Notes: generated by a model from the letters alone, not told the origin. Numbered from the stretch's first letter, positions 1,437 through 50,374 are shown. The stretch: DNA of 64,000 nucleotides from an uncultured virus (IMG/VR IMGVR_UViG_2522572172_000008) (IMGVR_UViG_2522572172_000008), one strand, 5' to 3'. Numbers and translations are program-made.

Positions 1437-1838
1437 ATGTACGCAAAGATAATTCTAAAAACAGGTGAGTATCATTTCAAAACAGAATCACATTACAGAC
1501 CAGAAGAATTGGAAGCATTAATGCACAGAATAAACAATTGTTGGGAACAATTTAAAAAAGACAAAGAAATTTCCGATGTTTTTATCAGTAAGGTTAATAT
1601 AAAAGACAGATTCATCATTGAATACTTGGAGTGCTTCCAGAAATGGAAATTAACAGAAGCAGGAGATATTATTTCATTTGTTGACAATACTTCAAAAAAG
1701 AAAAGTTTTCATGTAAGTTTCATTTCGTTATGGCATTTAGGATTTTTCACTGTACCAAATAAAGATTTATTTAATACTCGTTGGGAATGCGACGTAAATG
1801 ACCGACAAGTTTCTCACAAAGGATATTCATATCTATAA
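1437..1838 (+). CDS. Hypothetical protein
   Basis: ORF with GAGGAG RBS, downstream of promoter motif 2. Confidence 0.7.
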   Translation: MYAKIILKTGEYHFKTESHYRPEELEALMHRINNCWEQFKKDKEISDVFISKVNIKDRFIIEYLECFQKWKLTEAGDIISFVDNTSKKKSFHVSFISLWHLGFFTVPNKDLFNTRWECDVNDRQVSHKGYSYL

Positions 1839-1884
1839 TAAAAATATAAAAAAGAGGTTACCTGATTTTTTCAGGAACCTCTTT

Positions 1885-4800
1885 TTAAATAACCTCGTTG
1901 TTATATGCTCTTGATGTACACTTTGGACAAATGTGTTCACTCCAACCTACTTTACTTGCTAATGTGATAGATAAAGCATTTTGACCGTAAAATTGTTTTG
2001 TTTTTTCATCCCATAAATGCATAGTTGATTCTTCTTTACATGTCGGACATTTAATATTCTTACTCATATAAACCCTCTCCATTTCTTTTATTTTTATTTG
2101 TTATATTCATTATCTAATAAGTCTTTGTTATCATATATATTCCCAATCACTTCAATTGATTCAATAGAATGAAGGTCTCCCCCACCCTCTCCATTTACCT
2201 CAAACCCAAAGTTAGCGTCCGAAAAACAGACTACTCCTTTTACATTGTCATATCCACCATGCCAATGAGATTGACGCTTCCCAACAACAATGTCACCTGC
2301 AAACACCATTTGTTTTTCATCACTTGAATCTTTCAGTCCAATATATTGTCCCACTGATTCAAATTCTACTGGAACAAAACCTTGTCCTGGTGATTCAATA
2401 TAAGCTAAGTTATCTTCATAATTCATTACAGCATTGCCATAAAACCATTTTATATCACCATAATCTTCAATCGGTTTTCCCCTAAACAAAATCACATTTA
2501 TCCACTCCCTCTACTTTTAAAATACACATTTAATATTGCCCAAGCCCAAGACTACTTACGAGAATTTCATTTTCCTCTAAAGCTGATAATTCTGATTTCC
2601 CATGGTCACATTTTGTACAAAGTACATTATGAAACTTACCATTTTCTAAGTAAAAAAGAACATGGTCTCCCTTTTGAATACGGTCTTTACAGTCTCCACA
2701 TTTTAATCTTGATGACCTTGCAATAGAACTATGAATTGTGATACCCATGATATCCCTCTTTCGTTAACATATTTTAGATTCTATGAAACTGATTCTTGTA
2801 CTAAGTTGCATTTCTTACAATAAACCTTTTCTTCTACTACAACTGCGTTTTCCTCAGTACATGTAATTGAGCATTTTTGACATGTAAACCACCAACCGTT
2901 TTTTAACAATTCATTTTTTGGCACATATCCCAAATCAGCATATTTATCAAACTCTATTATCCTACTCGCTCTGATTTCCGTATAATCGCACCATCTATAC
3001 GCTTCACTCTTCACTTTCGCTTTACCAACGGTCTCAGCAAACACTATCTCTTGATTTTCACCATCGCTACCTTGAACATGAAATGCTTTCATAACATACA
3101 CCTACTTCCTTACTAAATACACTTTATATTCTACATTTCTAATACTTTTGCATTTGCTACAGGAAAGATTTTAAACCTCTGGCTTTGTAGCGTTGTTGAT
3201 ACAATAAAAGTATCTATATAGCTGTTCATTTTATTAGCATCTACTGTAACGAGCATACCATTATGCAACTTCACATATACTCCACTCTTGAATCCATCAC
3301 CAAGCATAAAACCCTCTCCATTAAGACACCTTTCAAGCGCTTCCATCAAGGTCAAGTCATATTTTATTTTCATATACATTCCCTCCTTATTTGGATAGAA
3401 CTCTTTTTTGCTTAATTTTATTGAATTACTGCCAATACTCATTATTGAAGTGTTTTCTTCCATACTCTTTTAACGCTTGGAGTTTGTTAATCATTTCATC
3501 AATATCGCAAATATGAATAGACATTGTATCTTCTCCTGTTTTATCCTCACGGGGTTTAACACCATTAAAACCAATGCTGTAATCAATACACCCATCCTTT
3601 TTCAAAATCACTTCATCAGTACCAAACTCCTCATCCCCTAAAACGATATTTCCACCTTCATATTCATGAATCTTTTTAAACATAATATTTCCCTCCCTGT
3701 ATAAGACTTAATTTTTCCGAGAGTTAATCTCTTTCAAATTTAAATGCAAATGAGTAAACATCTTTCCAGTCAATTCCATAGCATCTTCAGCACTAATTTC
3801 TTTCTGGATGTATTTTCGTTGTATTTCTGCTTGATATTCAATAAACTCAAGCATGTTCAATGATTTTTCTTGTATAATTGCATCCATAATTTATTCACTC
3901 CTATTTGTAATCTACAAATCTTTGAAAGTTAATAATCTTTACTTCATCATACTTATACTTATTCTTAATTCTTGTTTGAACTTCTTTTATCCATAACATG
4001 CCCTTTTCAGATGGGTGTTCAAATATATTAATGTGGTCATTATCAATGCCACGAAAACAACCATTTGTATATGAATACGATACAAAATAATCATAGTCCA
4101 TCACCTTATATGTTCCACTTCTAACCTTTTTTACATCTTCTTCTGTATATCCCATACGCAATAAATAACTACATTGCTTACACAGTTCTGATAAGCATTC
4201 AGATTCATCTACATTACAAATCCTGCATTTCACTTATCTTCACCTTCATCATAATCAGTAATTTGATAACCATCTTTTTTTGTATAGGTTACTGTTGCAA
4301 TAACTTTCTCTTTTTTAATTAAATCTTTATCTGAATACATTCTAATGGTAATTTTTTTATCCCTATTTTCATCTTTAACGATATTCTCTGCAACCGACTT
4401 CAAATTCTCTGGTGTTAAAAACTCATCAACAAGCACCGCATAATTTGCATCATCTTTTGTAATGTCTTTATGCACAACCGTAAACTCACTACCCGTAGGA
4501 TGATTTGCTTTTTCAATTGATTTGTTCATCGCATGAATTTTATAGAATGAAAAAATTGCAATGACCGAAAATAAGGTATAGATTATATTTTTTAATCTCT
4601 TAATTTTTTTTAGTTCCATGACGGCCACAGCTCCTTATCTTCGAAAAGAATGTCAACATCTTCTTTTTGTCTTTCATCCAAATCGTCATAATTCTCTTTG
4701 AACCATTTGATTTGAGCTTGTGTAATTTGATAAGTATGATTCTCATCAATAAGAAAACCTACAAAACCTCTCGAAATCGGAATGTAGTTCTTGAATCGTT

Positions 4801-45856: not shown

Positions 45857-46663
45857 TTATTGTTTGTTGTTCCTATTCCTATCATTTCTTGTAGTTAACA
45901 ATTCTCCAGGACTTAAAGAATCATAGAATGGTGCAGTTGGAGCAACCCATAGTACGCCAGAACCTGAGAAAGTTTGTAATACCCCTTCACCACTTAGCAT
46001 CGTTCCTGTTAAGCTCTTCGCTGACTTCTCTACACTGAATCGAATATCTCCAGAACGTAAGATTGCAAAATTACCATCTATTTGTGCTTTTTCGTTATCT
46101 AAGTAGTATTCGATAATTTCACTTCTTGGTACAGGTAATGCTAAAACAACTAAACCTGTTCCCTTCAATGAAGTTTGAAAAAATCCTTCGCCCCCAAAAA
46201 CAGCAGAACTTATATTTTTTTGAGAAGTAGGCTCTACAGCTATGTTTGCGGTACTACAACAGAACATCCCTTTATCAACAATAACTTCTTCATTATTAAG
46301 TTGCATGATTGCATAATGCTTCAAAGTTGGTTCTAAATAAATTTCTCCTACACCTCTATATACAGGTTTAACCGCTGATTCACTTGTTACAGTACCTTTC
46401 ATAACATTTTTTAATAGTCCTGTTACACCACCATTTTTCACTTCACACTCGATATTCCCTTTTAACATGTATAGTGCCCCTGCTTCTGTTTTTACAGAGC
46501 CATTCTTTAATGTAATTCGAATTTGTTTAAAAGTAACGTGAGCTTCTTTTGCAAAATATAACTTCATTGCATTATCAACATCTCTCGCTCCTTTTAATTG
46601 GGGCACTTCTAATATTTCAATCTTCATTTGTTCTGTCTCTTCTACTTCTAATACTTTATACAT
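45857..46663 (-). CDS. AIM24 family protein (TRAP-like fold)
   Basis: EAGALY, GEIYLEP, FGGEGFFQT and GEGVLQTFSGSG motifs. Confidence 0.85.
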   Translation of the reverse strand: MYKVLEVEETEQMKIEILEVPQLKGARDVDNAMKLYFAKEAHVTFKQIRITLKNGSVKTEAGALYMLKGNIECEVKNGGVTGLLKNVMKGTVTSESAVKPVYRGVGEIYLEPTLKHYAIMQLNNEEVIVDKGMFCCSTANIAVEPTSQKNISSAVFGGEGFFQTSLKGTGLVVLALPVPRSEIIEYYLDNEKAQIDGNFAILRSGDIRFSVEKSAKSLTGTMLSGEGVLQTFSGSGVLWVAPTAPFYDSLSPGELLTTRNDRNRNNKQ

Positions 46664-46758
46664 ACAATCATCTCCTTTTATACATGATTGTTGTATTGTA
46701 GAAAAAAGCGTGAGGAACTATTCGATAATAAAAAAAGATGAGGGTTTTACCCCTCATC

Positions 46759-48339
46759 TTACAATTCAATACTTTCAATTTCTTTCATTTGGTCTCCATC
46801 TGATTCAATAATCGTTCTTACTAAATCCAATAATCTATCAGAATACCCTCTTACATAAATGACTGAGCTATCTTTAGATACTTTATGACCTGATTCGGCT
46901 AATTGCCAAATGATTAGCTTTGCTCCCGTTTTTTGGTTAATCTTCAACCATGCACGTTCTAAATTATCAGCAGATTCATTATCCGTAAAAAGAATGACAA
47001 AATCTTCGTTTTTATACGCATTAAGCAACTGACTGAAATTAGTCCCGTATCCCACCATCGTAGATTCAATTTTATCCGCCATTTCAAAAACGTTATCTTG
47101 ACTACGTAGTTCTACTTTTTGTGACGTTGTAGCCACTGCAACGACCTCTGTATTATTATGAGATTTTTTAACCATGGCTCCAAATAGTGTAGCGATTTCC
47201 ATAGGAGATAACCCTCCAAGCACACCAGAAGTCATAGAGCCAGAAGTATCTACGCCCACTTTCAAGCTTTTGTTCTCATTAATAGAAAACGCTTCTTGTG
47301 CTACATCACGAAGTAACTTCCCTAAGGCTTTTTGGAACTCAGGAGTCACAACTTTCTTATTCGCCTGAATTAACGCAAATGGCAACATGTGAGAACGTTT
47401 ATATGCTTCTTTATCTGCAATTTTCGCAGAGACCATATCAACAATTTCTGATGGAATGTTCGTTTCAATTACAACGTCTTGTTTAAAGAACTGACCAATA
47501 CTTGGATTATAGACCTCTTCTTTACTAACCTCTGTTGCAAATACACGTTCTAAAGCAACTAAGTTTAAAATAAGTGCATTGTAATTTAAACGCTCATAAA
47601 CGGTTGCATATAAACGTTGCTTATCTTCTGGTAATAACGTAGAAACAGAATGCTTCACTTCTTCTAACTGAATAGAATGCTCTCGGACTAAACTATCCAT
47701 ATATAATGAATACTGTCCTGTTTCCAATCCACTAATAACAATCTTTAATGCTGTAGCTCGTGGGAATGTCAATTCTCCTTTTGAAACATATCTCATCAGC
47801 TTTTGAAAATCTTCATCTTTTGCTAAAGGTCTCGTAACTTTAGCAATATCACTAATTTTATTTTTATAACGAGTGGCTTGATATTCATTAATAAGTTGAA
47901 TAAAACGATTGTTTACTTCTCTTTTTACAGAGCGTCCTAATCCTTTTCGAATACCGCCTTTTCGTGAAATCTCAACAAAGTTATAGAGCATATTGAAATT
48001 GCGAATTATTAGTGGGAATGATTTTTTAAACAAGGACTTATCTTCTAATGTAGAAATATAAACCATCCAAATTGTTGGGACCAGTTTTAACTTCCCTTCA
48101 ACAGCTCCATAAATCGCACATTTCGTTGCAAACTCTGGTTCTTCTTTTAAAGCTCGTTGGAATAACTCCCCTGCATTTTTTAATACATCTTCTTGCTTTG
48201 TATAAAAAGTTCCATTTAATAATCCTAAGGTAAATAATTCGACCAATCGTTCTTTAAAACTATTCTTATATGCCAATGCTCCTTCTTTTGTTAACATCAT
48301 ATCAGGATTCATAGCTTTTACTTTATCAATTGTATTCAT
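46759..48339 (-). CDS. rsr: Ro60-like TROVE/vWA RNA-binding protein (526 aa)
   Basis: TKEGALAY and GTFY N-terminus, GLGRSVKR, vWA MIDAS DTSGSM...GT...TDNE; AAGGGG RBS before ATG 48339. Confidence 0.85.
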   Translation of the reverse strand: MNTIDKVKAMNPDMMLTKEGALAYKNSFKERLVELFTLGLLNGTFYTKQEDVLKNAGELFQRALKEEPEFATKCAIYGAVEGKLKLVPTIWMVYISTLEDKSLFKKSFPLIIRNFNMLYNFVEISRKGGIRKGLGRSVKREVNNRFIQLINEYQATRYKNKISDIAKVTRPLAKDEDFQKLMRYVSKGELTFPRATALKIVISGLETGQYSLYMDSLVREHSIQLEEVKHSVSTLLPEDKQRLYATVYERLNYNALILNLVALERVFATEVSKEEVYNPSIGQFFKQDVVIETNIPSEIVDMVSAKIADKEAYKRSHMLPFALIQANKKVVTPEFQKALGKLLRDVAQEAFSINENKSLKVGVDTSGSMTSGVLGGLSPMEIATLFGAMVKKSHNNTEVVAVATTSQKVELRSQDNVFEMADKIESTMVGYGTNFSQLLNAYKNEDFVILFTDNESADNLERAWLKINQKTGAKLIIWQLAESGHKVSKDSSVIYVRGYSDRLLDLVRTIIESDGDQMKEIESIEL

Positions 48340-48386
48340 CTTAACACGCCCCTTTTGAATATATGGTTTTTTAAATTTAAAACTAA

Positions 48387-48433
48387 AAGAATGAGCCACA
48401 AGAAGATGTATTATCCTCTCATGGCTCATTCTT
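48387..48433 (-). terminator. Long hairpin plus U tract between the RNA array and the ro60 gene
   Basis: AAGAATGAGCCA/TGGCTCATTCTT outer stem extended by G-U pairs, followed on the minus strand by TTAGTTTT. Confidence 0.6.
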
Positions 48434-48461
48434 CTAAAACATGTAACATGTTTATATAAAA

Positions 48462-48626
48462 CATAACGAAGAAGAAGGTGCAAGACAGTGGAGGCTGTAA
48501 AGTATCTAATCTTTTAAAAGAGTAGATACTTGCACGTTATTTTTATTCACATACAAAACACAAAATTCATTTTAGATTTTAATATCTTTAATCAAATTAA
48601 TGTAGTCTTGCAAGCACCTCGTTATG
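48462..48626 (-). ncRNA. Y-RNA-like element, class I copy 3
   Basis: CATAACGAGG-TGCT-TGCAAGAC-TACAT...GTCTTGCA-CCTTCTT-CTTCGTTATG. Confidence 0.7.
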
Positions 48627-48664
48627 ATTTTTTCTACGAAATGTAGAAAGTATAAGAAATGAGC

Positions 48665-48784
48665 TTTGAGGGAGAAGTAATAAGACAGGTGTGAATGTTT
48701 TTTCGTATGAGTGTACGCATAAACAATCCAAGTTTATTTTTTAAAATTTGTCGTATTTGTATGTAGTCTTATCAGCACCTCAAA
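48665..48784 (-). ncRNA. Y-RNA-like element, class I copy 2
   Basis: TTTGAGG-TGCT-GATAAGAC-TACAT...GTCTTATT-ACTTCTC-CCTCAAA. Confidence 0.7.
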
Positions 48785-48873
48785 ATATAAGCAGAAAAAG
48801 AGTAGCTTTCACAATTCCTCTTCTGGTATTAAGAAAAGAAGAGCTTCCACAGTTCTTTTCTTTAAAAAAAGTA

Positions 48874-48988
48874 AGTTATAACTTGAGTAGTCTCCAACCT
48901 AATCAACTACCCTTATTAACTCTTCACCTGTTCCGTAAACATGTGGCGAAATTAATAGGAACCATCCATTTATCTTCATGTTCCAACC
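48874..48988 (-). ncRNA. Structured RNA, class II copy 2
   Basis: GGTTGGAAC...TGGAT..TTCC...GAGTT...TGATTAGGTTGGAG...GTTATAACT, paralogous to 49041-49154. Confidence 0.6.
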
Positions 48989-49040
48989 GTATTTTCGATA
49001 AAAATCGAGATAACTCTACTTACAAAAAATAGAATCATTT

Positions 49041-49154
49041 AGTTATAACCTTGACGACCTCCGACCCAATCATCAACATCAACTCCATAGCAACAAGGTT
49101 AACACCTTTTACTATAGAATTGACGGGAATCTATCCACCGATATAGTTCCAACC
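49041..49154 (-). ncRNA. Structured RNA, class II copy 1
   Basis: GGTTGGAAC...TGGAT...TTCC...GAGTT...TGATTGGGTCGGAG...GTTATAACT. Confidence 0.6.
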
Positions 49155-49195
49155 ACTATTTTTTATGTAAACTCATCATAAGTGTGTTTTACATT

Positions 49196-49270
49196 CTAAC
49201 AAGGAAGAAGGTGCAAGACGTTAGTCCTTTTGGTAAGCTGTCAAATGTAGTCTTGCAAGCACCTCATTAA
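49196..49270 (-). ncRNA. Y-RNA-like element, class I copy 1 (minimal, 75 nt)
   Basis: TTAATGAGG-TGCT-TGCAAGAC-TACAT...GTCTTGCA-CCTTCTT-CCTTGTTAG. Confidence 0.7.
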
Positions 49271-49280
49271 CTATATTTAA

Positions 49281-49309
49281 ATTATAAATTAATTATATAC
49301 TATAGTCAA
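49281..49309 (-). promoter_or_regulatory. sigmaA promoter of the RNA array; -35 lies in the palindromic operator
   Basis: TTGACT-17 bp-TATAAT, with predicted start a few nt before class I copy 1. Confidence 0.8.
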
Positions 49310-49385
49310 TAAAAATATTATATTTTTTTATTTTATATAGTCTTATAAAATGAATTTTTTATTTCAACTTCAATATAATAGATAG

Positions 49386-49610
49386 TGATTCCTGTTGACC
49401 AAGCAACATAATAACTCGATAAGGGAGAATAGACACCTCATCCCGTCTTTCTGGACTTCGGGTGCCAGTGTCGTTGGCAGACAACATACAAATCTGTTAT
49501 ATACATCTTGAGGTTAGATGGTTGGCGAGCAACATAAAAACTTGGTGATTGTATGTTATCTTCCTAACATACAAATAAAAAAGCAGACCCTAAAAGGTCT
49601 GCTTTTCTCT
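49386..49610 (+). ncRNA. Candidate structured RNA divergent from the array
   Basis: TATAAT at 49374; nested stems, UUCG loop, ACCTCA/TGAGGT loop complementarity; terminator 49576-49610. Confidence 0.5.
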
Positions 49611-50374
49611 TATGCTCCTGCTGTAATACCGCCATCAGCCATTACTGTACTACCGACCATACAAGAAGACTCATCAGATGCTAAGAAAGCAACAATGTTC
49701 GCAATCTCTTTTGGTTGAATTGCACGTCCAAGCTTCTGAATTGCAGGTAATTCTTTTAGTACTTCTTCACGCCCTCCAAATAATTCTGCATGTGCATCAT
49801 TGAAAGTTGTATCTACCCATCCTGGACAAACACCATTCACACGAATGTTATCTTTAGCAAAATCAATTGCCATTTGTTTCGTTAACATCTTAATAGCACC
49901 CTTTGAAGTGACATATGCAGATAGTCGTTGCTCTGCAAATTCACTATTCGCTGAAGCCATATTTACAACCGCACCACCACCTGCTTTCTGCATATAAGGA
50001 AGCACGTACTTCGCCATTAAAAAGTATGATTTTACATTCACATTCATTGTTTTTTCCCAATTCTCTTCAGAAAGTTCAATGACAGAGCCAGGAATATTTA
50101 CACCTGCGTTATTTGATAAGATGTCAATTCGTCCAAATTTATCAAATGTATAGTCTACGACACGTTTTACCGCATCTGCATTTGAAACATCCGTATAAAC
50201 AAAGAACACCTCATGTCCTTGTCTTCTTAGCTCTACTGCTAATGCATTCCCCTCTTTTTCTAACACATCTGCAATGACTACTTTCGCACCTTCATCTATG
50301 AATTTACGAACAATAGCTCCTCCAATTCCTCGGGCTCCACCTGTTACAATTGCTACTTTATTTTCTAATTTCAT
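49610..50374 (-). CDS. Short-chain dehydrogenase/reductase
   Basis: TGGARGIG, NNAG and YVTSK motifs. Confidence 0.93.
   Translation of the reverse strand: MKLENKVAIVTGGARGIGGAIVRKFIDEGAKVVIADVLEKEGNALAVELRRQGHEVFFVYTDVSNADAVKRVVDYTFDKFGRIDILSNNAGVNIPGSVIELSEENWEKTMNVNVKSYFLMAKYVLPYMQKAGGGAVVNMASANSEFAEQRLSAYVTSKGAIKMLTKQMAIDFAKDNIRVNGVCPGWVDTTFNDAHAELFGGREEVLKELPAIQKLGRAIQPKEIANIVAFLASDESSCMVGSTVMADGGITAGA

Follow-up and report, generated by a model that had tools for sequence, protein, structure and literature searches.

Candidate Y RNAs without a tRNA-like domain upstream of a divergent Ro60-type gene on a Bacillus thuringiensis megaplasmid

Bacterial Y RNAs are modular and encoded within 4 kb of rsr on the rsr strand. 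Ro60 recognizes, chiefly through the 5' strand, a site in the stem formed by their 5' and 3' ends; the opposite end recruits effectors, PNPase among them, or gates the cavity of Ro60, and several Y RNAs can be cut from one precursor (PMC4201824; bioRxiv 10.1101/312249). In Salmonella Typhimurium and Mycobacterium smegmatis, Rsr binds YrlA (Rfam RF02553), a tRNA-like Y RNA, and Chen et al. 2014 also described Y RNAs without a full tRNA-like domain (YrlB and Yrn2), polycistronic clusters and a modular architecture (PMC4201824). Published Ro60-binding 5' motifs are GGUCCGA in animals and GNCGAAN0-1G in YrlA. Here we analyze a 64,000-nucleotide (nt) stretch of DNA, hereafter the window (IMGVR_UViG_2522572172_000008), in which three double-stemmed RNA elements lie on the minus strand between 48462 and 49270, upstream of a gene for a Ro60/Rsr-type protein. 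Our analysis suggests that these elements are probably bacterial Y RNAs of the YrlA lineage in which the tRNA-like domain has been lost or replaced.

The window is part of BTB_502p, a 502-kb plasmid of B. thuringiensis Bt407 (NC_018878.1). Of 72,556 plasmid records, megablast with 46700-49700 (3001 bases, 100% identity) matched this source plasmid alone, and no phage was matched. On the minus strand, an upstream gene of the glucose-1-dehydrogenase type, with its own terminator, ends at 49610, and 1267 bases without genes separate it from the start of a 527-amino acid (aa) gene at 48342. In this gap the initial annotation had placed three Y RNA-like elements having paired double stems with differing outer stems, unrelated interiors of varied length, and no tRNA-like domain. 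We recovered the three copies at those places on the minus strand, copy 2 (48784-48665 in that annotation) being one pair longer, at 48785-48664, and the remaining features of the description were borne out. Each copy comprises, in this order, an outer stem, UGCU, an inner stem, UACAU, an interior, the other strand of the inner stem, a 7-nt pyrimidine loop and the other strand of the outer stem. The internal loop is 4 x 7 (UGCU versus MCUUCUY) and the inner stem 8 bp in all three.

Copy 1 (49196-49270, minus strand) has a 9-bp outer stem, UUAAUGAGG/CCUUGUUAG, UGCU facing CCUUCUU, the inner stem UGCAAGAC/GUCUUGCA, UACAU, and a 30-nt interior forming an A-rich loop with no predicted structure. 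Copy 2 (48664-48785, minus strand) has an 8-bp outer stem, UUUUGAGG/CCUCAAAG, UGCU facing ACUUCUC, the inner stem GAUAAGAC/GUCUUAUU, and a 79-nt interior with one or more further predicted hairpins. Copy 3 (48462-48626, minus strand) has a 10-bp outer stem, CAUAACGAGG/CUUCGUUAUG, UGCU facing CCUUCUU, the same inner stem as copy 1 (UGCAAGAC/GUCUUGCA), and a 118-nt interior with three predicted hairpins. The interiors are A/U-rich, and the copies begin 928 nt and end 120 nt upstream of the 527-aa gene, on its strand.

Minimum free energy folds recover the double stem in 3/3 copies, and copies 2 and 3 fold better than their shuffles (z -3.06 and -5.30, respectively). When the downstream 478 nt were shuffled, the partner search found a 3' partner as good as the real one in 1, 7 and 0 of 1000 trials for copies 1, 2 and 3. 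An independent repeat finder returned the 5' block in three copies and the 3' block in two. ARAGORN called 0 tRNA genes in the window, Rfam gave 0 matches at gathering threshold over the whole window and no tRNA or YrlA match at E <= 10 on 48250-49700, and T-loop and D-loop patterns matched 0/3 copies. The Rfam matches in the gap at E <= 10 were at chance level (miRNA, snoRNA, and sbrA at the terminator of the upstream gene) and were set aside. Querying the window and every fetched locus by short-word blastn, with most of each interior as query, returned only A/T-rich words of 13-16 nt. At the match lengths that these searches can detect, and among plasmids, phages, the window and the fetched loci, the idea of guide- or spacer-like interiors was rejected, as sensitive blastn of 48440-49320 against plasmids and phages returned the source record and short A/T-rich matches (E 2e-3 to 6e-3).

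The gene downstream of the copies (46759-48342, minus strand) encodes a Ro60/Rsr-type protein of 527 aa, annotated as a TROVE domain-containing protein (WP_001091977.1); the TROVE protein of BTB_502p appears in a Bt407 proteome table (PMC12109265). Among Pfam families only vWA_Ro60 matched (31.5 bits, above cut-off), and the NCBIfam Rsr model NF041674 matched residues 8-458 (E 3e-12; 45.7 bits, below its equivalog cut-off of 900). Identity to Rhizobium Rsr is ~24% by tblastn. Searched against PDB, a profile of four clade members found Xenopus Ro60 (E 1.4e-12), human RO60, Thermus phage Ro60 and Deinococcus Rsr. An AlphaFold model based on a 14-sequence alignment (mean pLDDT 82.7, pTM 0.71) combines a HEAT-repeat (TROVE) ring with a von Willebrand A domain. 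Its 12 best PDB matches are all Ro60/Rsr structures (521-568 columns, E 5.5e-18 to 3.4e-12), led by 2nvo (E 5.5e-18; TM 0.72/0.76), and the matches after these 12 are unrelated repeat or von Willebrand A proteins. From the profile, domain and structure-model matches we conclude that the protein is a divergent but genuine Ro60-fold protein.

By tblastn, Aneurinibacillus, Paenibacillus polymyxa SC2 and Brevibacillus halotolerans encode related proteins (52-55% identical) on megaplasmids, and a further set came from scanning public collections by pattern: Bacillus sp. M6-12, 24 metagenome loci and 2 viral contigs. A simple motif scan found RRGGUGCN-N3-AAGAYUACAU upstream of the Ro60 gene, on the same strand, in most of these loci, and the partner search supplied matching 3' halves for ~60 copies. 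We aligned 24 hand-anchored copies with a 7-nt 3' loop (alignment A3). The choice of copies required the inner stem and four outer pairs, so that the count leans towards structure: 91.2% of cells are paired, compared with 75.7% in shuffles and ~50% with the 3' partner slid by 1-3 columns, and 75 cells, versus 29 in shuffles, are changed on both sides. Outer pairs 5-9, which the choice did not require, covary too. UGC and UACAU vary little or not at all across the 24 copies.

The initial annotation had proposed a covariance-model search, and we built such a model, R1 (113 columns), from A3. With filters off, R1 scores copies 1, 2 and 3 at 61.9 bits (1-113/113), 66.9 bits and 64.5 bits, and the rest of the gap at no more than 8.1 bits. 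Across 31 sources (290,571 bases, both strands), R1 gave 83 matches at E <= 1, all on the strand of the Ro60 gene, and, at E <= 0.001, 76 copies next to genes for related Ro60 proteins; these lie on Bacillales megaplasmids, metagenome contigs and the two viral contigs. Upstream sequence of 1 kb or more was available for 21 loci, a set that includes near-duplicates (L019/L020; L008/L011/L012), and 19 of them have a match at E <= 0.001; the two others are L012, with a match at E 0.32, and L029, with none. The whole 501,911-bp Bt407 plasmid has exactly three R1 matches, all in this gap, and the whole Aneurinibacillus and Brevibacillus plasmids have eight and three, all in the respective locus. 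The P. polymyxa plasmid pSC2 has four, two of them full-length copies (L033 5024-5317, equal to pSC2 232023-232316) 18 kb upstream of the Ro60 gene among hypothetical genes, and the 5.3-Mb genome of Bacillus sp. M6-12 has ten, two of them on another contig. The arrays reach 10 copies over 2.7 kb (L002, Aneurinibacillus, and L005, Bacillus sp. M6-12).

The alignment of the 76 copies was fitted to R1 and hence leans towards the model; in it, 92.5% of cells are paired versus 72.4% in shuffles, double changes number 294 versus 112, and the covariation score is 0.579 versus 0.209, with 0/500 shuffles as high. Compensatory changes are strong in both stems, and 6/7 outer pairs are changed on both sides (outer stems are 8-10 bp in the window copies). 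One outer pair is G-U in 41/76 copies, and R1 scores copy 2 at 66.9 bits but its opposite strand at 2.2 bits; the functional strand is therefore that of the Ro60 gene. The constant module consists of an outer-stem end YGRGG/CCYY, an internal loop of 5' UGCN versus a pyrimidine-rich 3' strand of 5-9 nt, the helix NNNAAGAY/RUCUUNNN, and unpaired UACAU.

The relation of this scaffold to YrlA is seen in other members of the clade. In a MAFFT alignment, the interiors of copies from loci L024, L025, L026 and L028 read GGUUCGAAUCC, a hairpin, then UAGCUCAGUUGG-AGAGC, which by sequence is the permuted arrangement by which YrlA is defined: T arm, closed acceptor-like stem, D arm. Full-length alignments of RF02553 (1-114/114) were obtained with L024 4056-4191 (51.5 bits, E 2e-10), L024 4523-4657 (45.9 bits), L026 3947-4080 (45.6 bits) and L026 4108-4217 (34.8 bits), and the same four elements are full-length R1 matches. 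In these alignments the outer stem falls on the outer stem, UGC on the AUGC loop, NNNAAGA on the inner stem, CUA on CUA, and the 3' pyrimidine loop on the 8-nt 3' loop of YrlA. Because RF02553 aligns end to end to four relatives that carry the scaffold, the scaffold appears to be the YrlA-type Ro60-binding module in a variant form. The initial annotation had considered a full-length match to an existing Rfam Y RNA model. Such a match exists for these four relatives, below the YrlA gathering score of 69, and for none of the window copies (E <= 10).

T-loop patterns were found in 17/72 family members and both T- and D-loop patterns in 6/72. The members concerned all come from L024, L025, L026, L028 and L032, apart from a single doubtful one in L005. 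We rejected a clustering of the T-loop-bearing copies on the Ro60 tree, from which L028 and six other loci were left out (recovered frame too short or fragment too small): four changes are needed, and 178/500 shuffles are as low. No direction of loss or gain can be claimed. YrlA matches above cut-off occurred in 0/5 whole records, the Bt407 plasmid included, and the weak YrlA matches in these records resemble tRNA-dimer false positives also met in 9/14 control genomes. In Bacillus sp. M6-12, the full-length scaffold pair on the other contig (L034 4456-4612, equal to G001:C24 54455-54611) stands beside weak tRNA-dimer-like matches.

Other tRNA-like sequences were observed near the arrays. Free-standing tRNA-like elements lie outside the Y scaffold, 50-60 nt before the Ro60 start, at L002 4872-4939 and L005 4880-4950; the Rfam tRNA model scores them at 49-52 bits, ARAGORN does not call the one of L002, and their position is that of a terminator-like hairpin in the window. 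Arrays of tRNA genes lie directly upstream of Y arrays on the same strand at L024 2556-3762 (up to 14 Rfam matches), L026 3335-3920, L010 368-2601 and L028 4295-4462, which recalls the tRNA-Y RNA precursors of Deinococcus.

The gap of the window has the appearance of one transcription unit. A sigma-70-type promoter, TTGACT-17-TATAAT (49281-49309, minus strand), matches the consensus at 11/12 positions, is the best site of the region and ends ~10 nt ahead of copy 1; promoter-like sites across the region as a whole are not in excess (7 versus 6.5 in shuffles). A similar promoter, TTGACA-17-TATATT, precedes the first array copy in L002. Between copy 3 and the Ro60 start codon, a terminator-like hairpin of 20 pairs with a U-rich tail occupies 48387-48433 (minus strand). 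We placed RNA sequencing contigs of two runs from two studies (X1 and X3) on 47900-49900; these contigs carry neither strand nor ends nor separate RNA species. In X1, contigs over 48493-49227 have a depth of 1603-3529, versus 15.7 in the Ro60 gene and 16.4 in the upstream gene. In X3, summed depth reaches 337,844 at 48905-48971, versus 900 and 236 in the flanking genes. The gap depth is thus 100-400 times that of the flanking genes, and since carry-over of DNA could not produce so large a difference inside a single replicon, the gap yields very abundant RNA. Copy 2 lies wholly within the X1 contig of depth 1603, which also covers 48493-48626 of copy 3. One X3 contig runs from inside the Ro60 gene across the terminator-like hairpin to 48518, inside copy 3, and read-through of the hairpin into the Ro60 gene is possible.

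The segment between copies 1 and 2 (48786-49195, minus strand; 410 nt) is structured (fold z -6.12, 0/100 shuffles as good) and is not of the Y-scaffold type. It contains two hairpins and two loosely similar elements of ~130 nt (~49170-49035 and ~49000-48865), and has no Rfam family, no R1 match and no BLAST relative in the other loci. We considered the ~130-nt elements as degenerate scaffold copies and rejected this on the lack of an R1 match; nor do they match each other by BLAST. They have in common GGUUGGAAC, GGAUNGNUUCC, UUGAUUNGGUYGGAG and GUUAUAAC, and the two hairpins carry UGUGRAAGC loops.

These data are consistent with the following scheme. Transcription of the three elements would start at the strong promoter (49309-49281) and yield a single abundant non-coding precursor, which would include the 410-nt middle segment and might be processed into separate RNAs. 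Each element would close on itself through its own 5'/3' outer stem, and the constant module (outer-stem end, asymmetric loop, inner stem and UACAU) would be the docking site for the plasmid's ring-shaped Ro60, which we expect all three elements to bind. By analogy with characterized Y RNAs, the variable interior would be an effector or gate module: it could tether Ro60 to another factor, as with PNPase in Deinococcus and Salmonella, or just occupy Ro60 and so control access to its cavity. Specific tethering seems no more likely than a role in gating or titration, because the interiors are not conserved and have no phage or plasmid matches. The initial annotation's view of a constant scaffold with exchangeable, non-tRNA interiors agrees with the Ro60-fold gene 120 nt downstream, with the recurrence of the scaffold beside relatives of that gene and with the column match to YrlA. 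A bolder extension, which we regard as unlikely, is that this Ro60 clade maintains arrays of 1-10 Y RNAs with a constant scaffold and free turnover of interiors, having abandoned the tRNA mimic for a library of exchangeable inserts displayed on Ro60, for example as decoys or tethers in conflicts between mobile elements and hosts.

Several observations weigh against the assignment of the three elements to the Y RNAs. The window copies have no YrlA match at E <= 10, and even the tRNA-bearing relatives in L024 and L026 score below the YrlA gathering score. The 5'-strand consensus YGRGG-UGC differs from the published GNCGAAN0-1G, which it replaces in the RF02553 alignments of the four relatives by falling on the motif columns. 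The fold of copy 1 is not better than that of shuffles (z -0.24; 78/200 shuffles equal). The 527-aa protein is a distant Ro60, with 16-18% identity to those of solved structure and a score below the NCBIfam equivalog cut-off. Interiors differ even between copies with the same outer stem (GUGGGG/CCCUAC, found in L002-L005 from four genera), and a sequence-specific effector role is therefore unsupported. The RNA contigs, besides being blind to strand, ends and separate species, have their depth peak over the middle segment, which is not a Y RNA, and not over the copies. Contig cover is absent from 49228-49403, so that copy 1 lacks it over its 5' half (49228-49270) and has it at 49196-49227 only, and one X1 contig ends in adapter at 49227, inside the loop of copy 1. 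Ordinary library size selection may deplete RNAs of 75-165 nt.

Some of these points would fit a different explanation, in which the double stems are processing or stability cassettes of a polycistronic non-coding precursor, acting as sites for a double-strand-specific or other ribonuclease, or as helices protecting the released pieces, with no direct binding to Ro60. The single strong promoter before copy 1, the terminator-like hairpin after copy 3, the abundance of the RNA between the copies and the contig ending with adapter inside copy 1 are all compatible with such cassettes. However, plain processing stems need no invariant unpaired UGC and UACAU and would not be confined to one Ro60 clade, and the scaffold matches the Ro60-binding module of YrlA column for column, which makes the cassettes improbable. 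It is improbable to a similar degree that the elements, instead of being free-standing small RNAs, act in cis within a long Ro60 mRNA leader, where Ro60 would bind three sites and autoregulate terminator read-through or translation. The X3 contig that links the gene to the inside of copy 3 is what such a leader would produce, and copies in all loci are upstream of the gene and on its strand. Yet the depth of the gap relative to the gene fits stable separate RNAs better, four copies are far from any Ro60 gene (the two 18 kb away in pSC2 and the two on the other contig of Bacillus sp. M6-12), and up to ten copies over 2.7 kb would be large for a leader. Least probable by far is a repeated structured element unrelated to Ro60 function, such as a repeat, mobile or prone to recombination, that megaplasmids and large phages carry and that merely accompanies the gene: the loci do lie on megaplasmids, viral contigs and contigs bearing tRNA arrays, and a few copies are not beside a Ro60 gene, but the strand is always that of the gene, the G-U pairs show selection at the RNA level, and homology to YrlA and very high RNA abundance are unexplained by such a repeat. 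We thus retain Y RNAs of the YrlA lineage as the probable identity of the three elements.

Further features of these loci deserve mention. Upstream of the promoter, in 49372-49576 (minus strand), a 10-bp hairpin without mismatches, UGUAUGUUA...UAACAUACA, occurs together with three repeats resembling AUGUUGCNNGNCAAC; folding of this part is not distinctive (z -1.48), and RNA depth there is at gene level or nil. Downstream of the Ro60 gene lies a gene of the AIM24/TIGR00266 family (45857-46663, minus strand). We rejected it as a conserved partner: among the fetched loci it recurs in L007 only (52% identity), which is the closest relative of the window within the Ro60 clade. Inside the Aneurinibacillus Y array, ~700 nt without annotated genes (L002 3760-4465) are G+C-richer and share blocks of 70-76% identity with L005 (3930-4090 and 3306-3467) and L010 (139-261), and may be another conserved non-coding RNA of these loci. 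In the same array, two adjacent copies at L002 3088-3505 have a common inner stem, UGAAAGAU, and a perfect alternative pairing (10 + 8 bp) is possible between the first copy's 5' half and the second copy's 3' half, which would give a nested 419-nt form.

In the 502-kb replicon and in most loci of its Ro60 clade, the only scaffold RNAs are ones without a tRNA-like domain, whereas more distant members of the clade keep the domain, and such a natural series could be used to study the function of the tRNA mimic. The series also defines a putative minimal Ro60-docking module (UGC loop, AAGAY helix and UACAU) in a genetically tractable Gram-positive bacterium. R1 catches 76 elements missed by Rfam 15, which indicates that Ro60-linked RNAs are under-annotated in plasmids and phages of Bacillota. 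The very high RNA level suggests that the ribonucleoprotein is a major product of the megaplasmid.

The Firmicutes in Table S1 of Chen et al. have Ro60 proteins of 489-503 aa with YrlA matches (PMC4201824), and the names thuringiensis and polymyxa occur 0 times each in that table, from which Bt407 and P. polymyxa are absent. Judged by title or abstract, none of six papers naming BTB_502p is on Y RNAs, and a search outside subscription journals showed no paper on this system among the matches listed.

In comparison with YrlA, the elements of the window are alike in lying close to Ro60 on the same strand and in a scaffold of two stems whose internal loop has (A)UGC on the 5' side and a longer strand on the 3' side, with CUA following the inner stem. 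They differ from it in the lack of a tRNA-like domain, in the 5' motif YGRGG-UGC and in a 5' loop of 4 nt versus 5 in YrlA. YrlB of Salmonella and M. smegmatis and Yrn2 of Deinococcus radiodurans, as described, are also encoded beside rsr, have a Ro60-binding stem without a complete tRNA mimic, and are made from a common precursor with another Y RNA (PMC4201824). Compared with these by description and not by sequence, the window copies have interiors of 30-118 nt and no tRNA-like partner in the window or the plasmid, and they do not form the long hairpin closed by a small pyrimidine-rich end loop typical of YrlB and Yrn2. Yrl1 and Yrl2 of Thermus phage phiLo are Y-like RNAs of stem-bulge-stem form just upstream of the Ro60 gene of a mobile element; they were identified through a CGAA motif and are bound by the phage Ro60 (PMC12135203). 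The window protein has the phiLo Ro60 (9kop and 9l5y) among its structural matches. Unlike our elements, Yrl1 and Yrl2, again compared by description, belong to another host and another Ro60 clade.

In conclusion, Y RNAs without a full tRNA mimic and clusters of Y RNAs were already known. The initial annotation had thus claimed too much novelty, as YrlB, Yrn2, polycistronic clusters and modularity are all in PMC4201824. New here are a Ro60 clade of its own, found on megaplasmids of Bacillales and on viral contigs, a scaffold whose consensus escapes Rfam 15, and arrays of up to ten copies. Also new, in contrast to the generalization that each species has a Y RNA with a tRNA-like domain, are replicons in which no Y RNA has one.

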